Assembly (NCBI GenBank): GCA_044226625.1
Contig: JBGAGQ010000034.1
Span: 1-63,119 of the forward strand
Direction of reading: 5' to 3'
Origin: Thermoanaerobaculia bacterium
Lineage (GTDB): Bacteria; Acidobacteriota; Thermoanaerobaculia; Multivoradales; UBA5704
DNA length: 63,119 nt
Within the stretch, counting starts at the first letter, position 1. Every line of letters begins with the position of its first letter. The notes under the pieces are model-generated. The model did not search any database and was not told the DNA's origin. It was given only the letters and a program-made list of their open reading frames with translations. A program made the translations under genes and the position numbers. Positions 3,390-53,849 of the stretch are shown one piece after another.

Positions 3390-3570
3390 AGGCGGAGGGT
3401 GGGGTTGAGGCGTTTCTACCTCCCGCACAAAGAGGTTGGCTTTTTGGAAAGGTTTGACGATCCGATGCCGGCGCGCCTTCGCCTCGGGTGCCTGTGCAAA
3501 GGTTCCCGGGAGCGCCGCGCCGCGTTCCGACCGAGGACCCCCGGCAGCCGGCTGTGGTTGCAAAGCCTTG

Positions 3571-3864
3571 TGCAGAGGTACACCGCGGCTTTGCAGCGGT
3601 GCAAAACTCCAGTGCCGTGGTGCCCTGGCGAAATGCACGGGTGCAATCCGGCGATGCATCACGGCACAGCCTCAGCGCACCCCTGCAAAGTCGCTGTGCA
3701 CCCGTGCGCTGGCAGAATGCACCGCTGCAAAGCTCCAGCGCACCTTTGCAAAGCCGCAGTGCACCGCTGCAATCTCCCAGCGCACCTCGACAAAATCTCA
3801 GCGCACCGCGGCAAAACTCCAGCGCACTGCCGCAAAACCCGAACGCACCGGTGCAAAGCCCGGT
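3571..3864. repeat. phased array of 14 degenerate 21-bp units with palindromic core YGCA-N4-TGCA
   Basis: Cores start at exactly 21-bp intervals: 3571, 3592, 3613 ... 3823, 3844 (e.g. tgcagcggtgca, tgcacgggtgca, tgcaccgctgca, cgcaccggtgca). Confidence 0.9.
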
Positions 3865-37868: not shown

Positions 37869-37931
37869 GTGGTCAGAATCTGACCACCAGGTGGTTGAAA
37901 TTTGACCACCAAGTGGTTGAAATTTGACCAC
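37869..37931. promoter_or_regulatory. three 19-bp palindromic repeats at 22-bp spacing
   Basis: GTGGTCAGAATCTGACCAC (37869); GTGGTTGAAATTTGACCAC (37891 and 37913); ends 23 bp before ATG 37955. Confidence 0.75.
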
Positions 37932-37954
37932 CGAGGGACTACTCTGAGGCTGGA

Positions 37955-48914: not shown

Positions 48915-49151
48915 ATGGCAAGAGCCGCCGCGGAGATGGCTGCCGAGATTCGAACTCTCGACCCCGTGGAGCAGAGCAAGCTATTGCGCATGCTGCTCGA
49001 CGACCTGGATGGACCGGCAGATCCCGACGTGGACCGTGCGTGGATTGAAGAGGCTCAGCAACGTAGCCAGGAGCTGGAGGCTGGGCTCGTCAAGGGCATT
49101 CCCGCAGAAGAAGTTCTCGCCAACGCGCGCGCTCGCCTTCGCGCCCGATGA
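48915..49151 (+). CDS. putative addiction module antitoxin (TIGR02574-like)
   Basis: AAGGAG RBS; VDRAWIEEAQQR...IPAEEV; ATGA overlap with the toxin gene. Confidence 0.8.
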   Translation: MARAAAEMAAEIRTLDPVEQSKLLRMLLDDLDGPADPDVDRAWIEEAQQRSQELEAGLVKGIPAEEVLANARARLRAR

Positions 49152-49462
49152 AGGTTGAGTTTCTACCGGCGGCAGAGGAGGAATTGAACGAAGCTGCGGC
49201 CTTTTACCAAGAGCGAGTGCCTGGCCTCGGCGAAGATCTCGTGGCTGAGGTGGAGCTGGCGCAGGATCTCTTGTCCCTCCAACCCAACTTGGGAACAAAA
49301 CTGGACGCCAAGCATCGGCGGTTACCCCTCCGCCGGTTTCCCTTCGGACTCATCTTCCGGGTCGATCCGGACGCAGTCCGAATCGTGGCGATAGCGCACA
49401 ACCGGCGGCGCCCCGGCTACTGGCGATCGCGGACCCTTAGCAGGCCGGCAGAACGAAGATGA
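49148..49462 (+). CDS. RelE/ParE family toxin
   Basis: FLPAAEEELNEAAAFY, RRFPFGLIF, IVAIAHNRRRPGYW. Confidence 0.9.
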   Translation: MKVEFLPAAEEELNEAAAFYQERVPGLGEDLVAEVELAQDLLSLQPNLGTKLDAKHRRLPLRRFPFGLIFRVDPDAVRIVAIAHNRRRPGYWRSRTLSRPAERR

Positions 49463-49585: not shown

Positions 49586-49948
49586 TCATTCCTTCTTCCC
49601 CTCCCCGCCCACCTTCACCTTCTTCGTCCGCTTACGCGGCGTCCGAGGTTCGATTCCGAACGCGACGAGCCTGGGGTAATCGAAACCGAAGTGGGCTTTG
49701 AGATGGGCGGCGAGGACGAGCCGCTTCTGACGGGCGGCGTAGGCGAGCTTTTGGCGGCGTTTGATGAGGCCCCGCAGCTGGCCGTTGGCGACTTCGATCT
49801 CGGCACAGAGTCGCTGCATCTCGTCCATCATTTGCCTTAGCTCTTCGCGATCGGCGCGCGCGTGAGGGACTTCCTCGATGGCGGATTCGAGGTTGTTGAC
49901 CAGAACATGCCACTGCTCGATCTGGTGAGCGTAGGTTCCGTGCGACAT
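49586..49948 (-). CDS. small all-helical protein of unknown function with basic C-terminal tail (120 aa)
   Basis: GAGGAGG RBS; amphipathic helices; ends LKAHFGFDYPRLVAFGIEPRTPRKRTKK. Confidence 0.8.
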   Translation of the reverse strand: MSHGTYAHQIEQWHVLVNNLESAIEEVPHARADREELRQMMDEMQRLCAEIEVANGQLRGLIKRRQKLAYAARQKRLVLAAHLKAHFGFDYPRLVAFGIEPRTPRKRTKKVKVGGEGKKE

Positions 49949-49990
49949 CTGTGTCCCTCCTCGAAATACGACAAGCGGCTCCTCGGTAGG

Positions 49991-50210
49991 CGGTCTCTGG
50001 GTCAGGATACGAGTCCGTGAGTCGGAGAATGAGTCTCGGGCCCGGGGACAAAGTCTCTGAATCAGAGATTCTATCGCGGACTCAGAGACTTATTCCCGGA
50101 AACAGAGATTATATCTCCAGGTGAAGGAGCTGTTCTCTAACCCAGAGAGTCGTTCTTCGGGCTAAAGATTGAGTCTCTGGTCAAAGGATCCATTCTCGGA
50201 TCCAGGGATC
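49991..50210. repeat. phased array of 11 degenerate 20-bp palindromic units (TCTCTG-N3-CAGAGA)
   Basis: TC at unit positions 4-5 in 11/11 units and GA at 17-18 in 10/11; exact 20-bp period. Confidence 0.9.
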
Positions 50211-50464
50211 GCTTGCCAGCGGCTCACGACGACTCTCCGTCGGCACTTCCCGGTTCCGTGACAGAGGAATGGATTGCCCCCTCCCCGTTTGGCGCCGTCG
50301 CGGCCCGCGCGATAGCATCTCCTCTCCGTAGCTCCCGCCGGCCCCCCGGGCCGCTTCGCGCCTTTCCAGTCTTCGAATTCCGGTCGTCCGCCGCGGGACG
50401 GATGCCGACTGTCAAGAATCAGCTCGCTGGCCGGGAGATTCGCCAGGAGATTAGGAGAACCGCC

Positions 50465-53059: not shown

Positions 53060-53849
53060 CTCTAGCGGCCTTTCAGGCCGCCTTTCTGTAGGCAACACCG
53101 GACCCAGGGCATCGGCCTTCGGCCTCAGCCCTGGGCTCCATTCTGCCGGCCCTTCGGGCCGGTCCCATGACCTCGGCCGTCGCTTTGGGCAGGCTGGCGG
53201 CCTTTTAGGCGGCCTTTCTTCAGGCACCGGCAGATACAGGGCATTGGCCTTCGGCCTCAGCCCTGGGCTCGATTCTGCCCGCCCTTCGGGCCGGTCGCAT
53301 GACCGTCGGCCATCGCTTCGGGCAGGCTGGCGGCCTTTCATGCCGCCTTTCTTCAGGCACCGGCAGATCCAGGATATTGGCCTTCGGCCTCAGCCCTGGG
53401 CTCGATTCTGCCGGCCCTTCGGGCCGGTCCCCTGACCGTCGGCCGTCGCTCGAGCTAGGTTTTGTCCGCAATCCACGCGCTGGTCCCCCTGCGAGCTCGT
53501 TTTTTCCGCGTCGACACGCAGAATCCCTGCTCCGTCGCTCCGTCTTCTTCGGCCCAACGGGCCGAAAGAACCCAGCCCAGGGCTGAGGCCGAAGGCCGAT
53601 GCCCTGGGGGAGAGGCACCCCACTTCGTGCCGGTCTCCCGACCATCGGCCGTGGCTCGAGCTAGGTTTTGTCCGCGGTCCACGCGTAGAGCCCCCTGCGA
53701 GCTCGATTTTTCCGCGTCGACACGCAGAATTCCTGCTCCGTCTTTTTCGGCCCAACGGGCCGTAAGAACACAGCCCAGGGCTGAGGCCGAAGGCCGATGC
53801 CCTGGGGGGAGAGGCACACCACGACCCGCGGCCTGAAAGGCCGCTAGAG
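53060..53849. repeat. 790-bp composite REP/BIME-like repeat cluster
   Basis: Three direct ~133-bp units and two inverted ~200-bp units share GGCCTTCGGCCTCAGCCCTGGGCT. The block is bounded by a perfect 22-bp inverted repeat, CTCTAGCGGCCTTTCAGGCCGC. Confidence 0.88.

Follow-up and report, generated by a model that had tools for sequence, protein, structure and literature searches.

What a run of phased, non-coding DNA repeats is for, and whether the small gene that it adjoins encodes its partner, are the questions raised by a locus in the window analyzed here, the whole 63,119-nucleotide stretch of contig JBGAGQ010000034.1 from a Thermoanaerobaculia bacterium (this genome is G000 below). Constant-size, variable-sequence tandem repeats of 20-21 nt are known in bacteria as "satellites"; in the sections covered, Subirana and Messeguer report the class in Bacillus and other phyla, note that its length equals two helical turns and postulate a protein whose polymerization requires the repeats to be of one size (PMC8161180). 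The locus comprises the following features:

48915-49462, convergent with the helical protein gene: Unstab_antitox and ParE toxin-antitoxin pair, whose place is taken by different small genes at orthologous loci
49586..49948, minus strand: gene for a 120-residue helical protein of no known family, one of 19 paralogues
49949..49990, minus strand: 42-bp leader from the last unit to the start codon, a putative promoter region
49956..49962, minus strand: ribosome-binding site GAGGAGG, read from the sequence
49991..50210, no strand: degenerate non-coding tandem array, 11 x 20 bp, consensus TCTCTG-N3-CAGAGA

Constraint on the focal array

The array at 49991-50210 is real and selected. Its 11 contiguous 20-bp units share the full consensus nnnTCTCTG-N3-CAGAGAnn with zero indels; T4 and C5 are present in 11/11 units and G17 and A18 in 10/11, so that column counts, together with shuffles, bear out the gap-free register and near-invariant TC and GA of the original prediction. 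Self-identity reaches 0.55, 0.57 and 0.54 at lags of 20, 40 and 60, against about 0.25 elsewhere, and lies above all of 1000 dinucleotide shuffles, in which the maximum at any period from 18 to 23 was 0.331; Tandem Repeats Finder recovers just 2.8 units. Each period contains two dyads, the half-site orientation flipping every 10 bp, and no purine/pyrimidine or AT sub-period at 10 bp is common to the arrays.

The array is non-coding, because stop codons occur in all six of its frames, which rules out a coding repeat; the argument first offered for this conclusion, the period of 20, is no proof on its own. Frame bias is absent over 109 upstream arrays of the helical-protein family, and the single database protein that reads through a 21-bp array (P0106) is taken as a gene-call extension. 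The focal half-sites do not covary across either dyad (p 0.80 and 0.82), nor was covariation found at any of 56 dyads in gene-linked arrays of the family, and the focal array has no match in Rfam. Compared with dinucleotide shuffles its folding is stronger (z -3.7), but the advantage disappears when columns (z +0.8) or the order of the units are shuffled; the folding is therefore due to the palindromic consensus alone. These controls and the absent covariation rule out unit-specific RNA hairpins, as had been argued from the half-sites. A CRISPR array, also discounted from the start, or a TIGR guide array is ruled out as well: the variable positions within a unit span just 3 and 5 nt, so there are no unique spacers, and neither a Cas nor a Nop-domain effector is found in the helical protein or its recurring neighbors.

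Five further orthologues, the named records of whose clade are Thermoanaerobaculia/Acidobacteriota, keep the 20-bp register, the motif and the leader, and unit number varies by whole units. The TC/GA columns are 95-100% identical among orthologues compared with 65% (323/498) at the four-fold sites of the gene and 27-50% in the spacer columns, an order that places the constraint on phase and a few bases. What is conserved is thus the period and a few columns, not pairing or coding, a DNA-like rather than RNA-like pattern. The array and the gene share their inheritance, moves and losses. At the acyl-CoA dehydrogenase site, three of eight genus genomes carry both gene and array and four carry neither; G006 retains just the gene's 3' end, with the array and the 5' part missing together. 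G007 has the module at another place, plus one gene-less copy of the focal motif. In G000, G001 and G003 the motif has no second site, and the focal gene is 53-70% identical to the orthologues whose array motif is kept.

As originally described, the gene starts 42 bp from the array and has a strong ribosome-binding site, GAGGAGG. The leader measures 41-43 bp in 6/6 orthologues, and a -10-like hexamer (TAATAT/TAATTT) follows the last unit in 4/6, this genome not among them. Pfam confirms the maf, Unstab_antitox/ParE and acyl-CoA dehydrogenase genes named as neighbors. Inclusion of the toxin-antitoxin pair in the unit has to be given up, since orthologous loci hold other genes there; the genes downstream of the helical gene vary among orthologues, which makes the pair cargo of a hot spot. 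The sequence TTGGCG-N18-TAGCAT at 50289-50318, which visual inspection suggests to be the acyl-CoA dehydrogenase promoter, is kept across the genus, also in genomes that lack the module. Elsewhere in the window, a 133-bp unit that contains REP-like palindromes is present in 2.9 copies at 53065-53450, resembled by elements at the orthologous hot spot of G006 and on contig C35, and an AT-richer 22-bp unit, possibly an operator, is present in 2.5 near-perfect copies at 37877-37932.

The helical-protein family and its arrays

The protein belongs to a family with 19 paralogues in this genome and 7-50 matches in each relative (wide-profile search). The family is present in 23/24 other genomes of the host's taxonomic family and was found in 0/16 genomes from other families of the order and in 0/200 genomes across Acidobacteriota, where 21 candidates were scored in each genome; at 50% identity, the clusters that pass 1e-10 number 852. 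After partial and duplicate hits were dropped, 223 loci yielded 201 distinct full-length genes. At an array score of at least 0.47, an upstream array accompanies 121/194 family genes with enough flank, with periods of 20 (23 arrays), 21 (88), 22 (8) or another value (2), i.e., 119/121 within 20-22 bp; under nearly the same settings, 2% of 1500 random 700-bp windows reach that score. The remaining 73/194 have no upstream array at this threshold, and a downstream array is present in 29/197, mostly in other genera. The original proposal that homologues should be flanked by periodic arrays thus holds, with strong enrichment at 20-22 bp.

The link is also evident within G000, where an array lies at most 500 bp upstream of 11/19 family genes compared with 50/4955 other genes predicted by the analysis's own gene caller, three GC-rich low-complexity hits having been dropped. 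When only upstream gaps of at least 250 bp are considered, the counts are 10/15 and 46/1034, an enrichment that is still about 15-fold after this control for gap size. The other 50 array-adjoining genes share no common family. Among 128 gene-linked arrays, a motif similarity above 0.8 is seen in 81-89% of pairs whose proteins are more than 80% identical and in about 0% of pairs below 40%: each paralogue clade has its own 20-22-bp motif. The expected covariation of array consensus with protein clade is therefore observed; it is no proof of binding, because plain linkage or co-inheritance gives the same pattern. The palindromy that prompted the original description stands for the focal consensus but does not extend to the whole family: clear palindromy is seen in 57/128 gene-linked arrays, compared with 0.4% of permuted controls, and is missing from 71/128. 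The locus is one copy of a lineage-specific module made of a satellite and a small helical protein.

Other small genes recur near family genes. A frequent partner is a degenerate, PCD/DCoH-like Pterin_4a gene (37 neighbor ORFs, none at the focal locus); four of five ORFs examined pass the Pfam cut-off, and the array lies between partner and family gene in 14/32 cases. In G000, such degenerate genes stand beside family genes in 6/6 cases (L035, L043, L046, L033 and L038, on contigs C13, C125, C76, C46 and C57, respectively, and one on C109); they carry an LK(A/S/P)ERIQ motif and do not have the HHP motif seen in the canonical C1 copy. Downstream of family genes, a small protein with an N-terminal NAF motif recurs at 11 loci (including L066, L067, L072 and L129) and an HTH-looking small protein at 14 (including L028, L046 and L095); neither has a Pfam match.

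The AlphaFold model of the 120-residue protein (pLDDT 89) contains helices at 6-22, 28-87 and 92-97 and a disordered basic tail; the confident model has three helices and no strand. The interval from P28 to G88 is exactly 61 residues in 358/361 sequences, the long helix bears recurring basic residues, with conserved basic positions at 45, 55, 59, 65, 66, 76, 78 and 84 and in the tail, and 91% of tails have at least four K/R in 12 residues. A homodimer was modeled with a score of 0.68, compared with 0.00 for the best control, with 98% of contacts agreeing between runs and pLDDT of at least 83; the homodimer mark is attained by 20/30 solved homodimers and 1/23 monomers. Predicted contacts 51-61, 40-72 and 44-68 (i+j about 112) describe an antiparallel pair centered on residue 56, which is A, G or S in 97% of the family. 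Calculated from this contact register alone, the two tails would lie roughly 60-70 A apart, compared with 68-71 A for the length of 20-21 bp. The models support an elongated, rod-like, two-fold antiparallel homodimer with a basic tail near each end, and the dimeric state postulated at the outset is thus predicted.

The protein was not placed in any characterized family, as the original prediction required of a new system: sequence searches of Pfam, NCBIfam, PHROGs, PADLOC and PDB returned only sub-threshold coiled-coil matches, Foldseek found no match at E 0.001 in PDB or BFVD, and the best structural matches by VIA-align are generic helical hairpins (Z up to 7.4). No recognized DNA-binding fold is found in it. 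Acidobacteriota clusters are retrieved from the ESM Atlas at 0.97-0.98; DUF6261 (0.76; no match in G000) and a 208-residue Bacteroidota cluster (0.84) are leads only. No homologue was found in viral contigs, searched with close-clade patterns only, or in phage records. Longer forms of the family are tandem doublets or one HTH fusion; heterodimers are hinted at by other genera, in which the helical domain occurs in tandem pairs or as fused doublets (P0163-P0165, L023).

Dispersed arrays without a gene

Beyond what was originally described, the window contains a second array, and the genome about 100 more:

3569..3862, no strand: gene-less array, 14 x 21 bp, of the GCACCGGTGC motif family, with a match to a paralogue's array on contig C123

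This array lies just downstream of an rlmN-like gene; it is present in G000, G006 and G007 and absent from five other genus genomes. Altogether, G000 has 99 intergenic 20-22-bp arrays, 13 of them gene-linked, and 83/96 counted arrays are without a family gene. The gene-less arrays match the home genome: 48/83 resemble a gene-linked array of G000, 57/83 one of G000 or the genus, and 0/83 any of 43 gene-linked arrays from other genera. No remnants of the helical gene were found beside them. Leaders and ends are common within a motif family, which suggests that gene-less copies spread as units of a few hundred base pairs; transposed non-coding satellites are reported as rare in the part of the literature covered (PMC6749651). 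The best case for defining a mobile unit is the CGTCCCG family of 20-bp arrays (G000 C29:5490, C92:155, C100:3660, C133:30885 and others), which has a common 120-bp leader and a sharp end; this large gene-less family has zero linked family genes among those sampled. The sole Y1 transposase match of G000 (C79:1385-3097) is located 1.3 kb from one gene-less array.

In other genomes, arrays accompany the family. Samples from genomes with 50 and 16 family matches gave 15 and 11 array hits per 400 kb; genomes without the family gave three weak hits in 580 kb (G016, of the same taxonomic family) and two weak hits in 400 kb (G031), a contrast of four samples from few related genomes. A further 100 kb from two more genomes gave 0 hits. 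The matching to own gene-linked arrays is weaker outside G000, with few linked arrays to compare: they are matched by 3/9 sampled arrays in G014 and by 1/13 in G013, where only five gene-linked arrays were available for comparison; 3/13 in G013 match gene-linked arrays of other genomes at 0.80-0.84.

A candidate satellite-binding protein

How does this module relate to known systems? Satellites measure 20-23 nt, have at least four units and keep a constant length; the focal array has 11 units of 20 bp, and family periods run from 20 to 22. It is non-coding, as satellites are, and G000 holds several lineage-specific families of unrelated sequence. As in PMC8161180, to the extent covered, the arrays are dispersed and lineage-specific, with a short conserved core per unit and a length of two helical turns. 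Unlike there, the motif families here are each linked to a paralogue within a single protein family; the sections covered name no linked gene or protein family and do not treat Acidobacteriota (PMC8161180). No description of the gene-array pairing was found in the literature covered, and for the pairing the original statement that no described system has this layout may stand; the array type is described, though unexplained, in PMC8161180.

Plasmid centromeres (parC-ParR, omega, ParG) offer a working analogy, with parC-ParR as the nearest: in the parts of the sources covered, an array lies upstream of the gene for a small dimeric protein, here only predicted to be dimeric, protein-array pairs are family-specific, and autoregulation acts through the array (PMC3074162; PMC9426499). 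Unlike type Ib/II plasmid centromeres, the module is chromosomal, has up to 50 paralogues and many dispersed copies, and does not have a ribbon-helix-helix fold; no RHH or HTH DNA-binding domain is found in the three-helix, strandless model or above the Pfam and NCBIfam cut-offs. The centromere-like role that had been suggested finds no support from a nearby ParA-type ATPase: no ParA-type Walker A motif was found in 635 neighbor ORFs within 1.5 kb, and no NTPase cluster was seen to recur among the neighbors.

REP/REPIN-RAYT systems likewise have a cognate palindromic repeat family beside a gene and through extragenic space (PMC3116915, in part). For the helical family the repeats are dispersed, and of the focal motif a single gene-less copy was found, in G007. 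By contrast, the partner is not an HUH tyrosine transposase (there is no Y1_Tnp match in the helical protein, and the single G000 match, on C79, is not at a family gene), and instead of doublets that form hairpins, the repeats make up tandem arrays in phase. Tandem repeats also lie upstream of a small gene in type III toxin-antitoxin loci (ToxIN, CptIN, TenpIN), but there, in the sections covered, two to six units measure 31-62 nt (PMC3401426) compared with 4-27 diverged units of 20-22 nt here. No terminator is found between repeats and gene on the gene strand at the focal locus, and only 9/102 family loci have one; a Kid/MazF-type RNase of the ToxN/CptN/TenpN kind was not recognized, the model being all-helical and without a family match, and no Rfam match or RNA covariation was detected.

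H-NS-, Lsr2- and MvaT-type nucleoid proteins have a helical dimerization region and a basic tail and read AT-rich DNA; we know of none with a fixed period or a cognate linked array. Like them, some family proteins contain GRP (12/357) or K/R-G-R (65/357). No H-NS/Lsr2-like homology appears among the matches listed by Pfam, Foldseek and VIA, an absence that does not exclude likeness.

Our main reading, to which we assign a probability of about one half, is that dimers coat their cognate arrays, one per two DNA turns, controlling their own promoter and binding the dispersed copies. One dimer would occupy each 20-21-bp unit. Its two-fold axis would coincide with one dyad and the dimer-dimer two-fold with the other, and end-to-end packing could build a filament on a cognate array, with the fixed helix length as the ruler that sets the period. 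At the home locus, the filament would control the gene's own promoter (autoregulation); at dispersed copies, the protein might organize or bridge the chromosome, or the copies might buffer or titrate the protein. The ruler would have to be loose, because core length is equal for the proteins of 20-, 21- and 22-bp arrays, and a symmetric homodimer does not predict the 71/128 arrays that are not clearly palindromic. Downstream arrays, array-less genes and copy movement are likewise left unaccounted for.

Alternatively, the array could be a DNA-level control element read by another factor, such as an XRE/RHH-like neighbor, the product of the degenerate PCD/DCoH-like gene, some general nucleoid protein or the shape of the DNA, with the helical protein as a regulated output that has an unrelated job. 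Promoter-like sites between array and start are denser on the gene strand (1.95 per kb) than antisense (0.47), the helical protein has no known DNA-binding fold, and potential readers are at hand: all six degenerate Pterin_4a genes noted in G000 adjoin family genes, the array separates such a pair in 14/32 cases across the family, and HTH-like and further small genes recur. Yet no such neighbor accompanies the focal module in any orthologue, arrays of unrelated sequence adjoin this one protein family and no other, and the downstream position in some genera makes a promoter role unlikely there. We regard this explanation as unlikely.

A distinctly improbable explanation is that the array acts as RNA, its repeat transcript being bound by the basic helical dimer (as a type III antitoxin-like element, in packaging or as a sponge) and RNA intermediates spreading the gene-less copies. 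It draws on the type III-like layout with repeats upstream (PMC3401426, sections covered), on the discussion of transcription of such repeats in part of PMC8161180, on the folding of the focal array relative to dinucleotide shuffles and on the common flanks and ends of gene-less copies, which were thus copied as units. The folding signal, however, is lost against column-shuffled and unit-order controls, covariation is absent, terminator-like hairpins between array and gene are rare (9/102), the period equals two DNA turns, and the -10-like site follows the array instead of preceding it in 4/6 orthologues. Least probable is that the arrays are selfish or neutral repeats at hot spots that also hold an accessory gene, paired by hitch-hiking or insertion preference: most G000 arrays (83/96) do lack a family gene, the focal and rlmN sites are polymorphic for presence within the genus, and the neighborhood of the focal gene shows turnover of toxin-antitoxin genes and further cargo, but the enrichment of about 15-fold survives gap-size control, the focal motif is kept beside a gene only 53-70% identical while undispersed in G000, G001 and G003, and columns are constrained while units diverge without indels.

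Returning to dimers that coat cognate arrays, the array class is already known, and what is new is the protein partner and the large gene-satellite pairing; from sequence, the partner is a candidate for array binding. The helical family is not a general explanation of the repeat class, because the repeats are reported in Bacillus and other phyla and the family was found in 0/200 other genomes of the phylum to which it belongs, unless its homologues have diverged beyond detection. A broader picture, offered tentatively and with more doubt than conviction, is that coiled-coil dimers encoded by paralogues act as "rulers": each would co-evolve with a two-turn satellite of its own, and the dimers would polymerize on dispersed cognate arrays, whose spread they may drive. 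Such a system would be a chromatin with many channels, addressed by sequence and comparable to the satellite-protein pairs of eukaryotes, and its proteins would be a new class of bacterial satellite-binding proteins.

For the published puzzle of 20-21-nt bacterial repeats, fixed in size and free in sequence, the locus gives a concrete candidate for the postulated polymerizing protein. The pair is small, a protein of 120 residues and 220 bp of DNA, testable in vitro or in a laboratory strain with no need to culture the host, and the dozens of paralogue-motif pairs constitute a ready-made specificity matrix. If these proteins bind their cognate arrays, their architecture would be new among DNA-binding proteins, and the protein-array pairs would form a naturally occurring orthogonal set.
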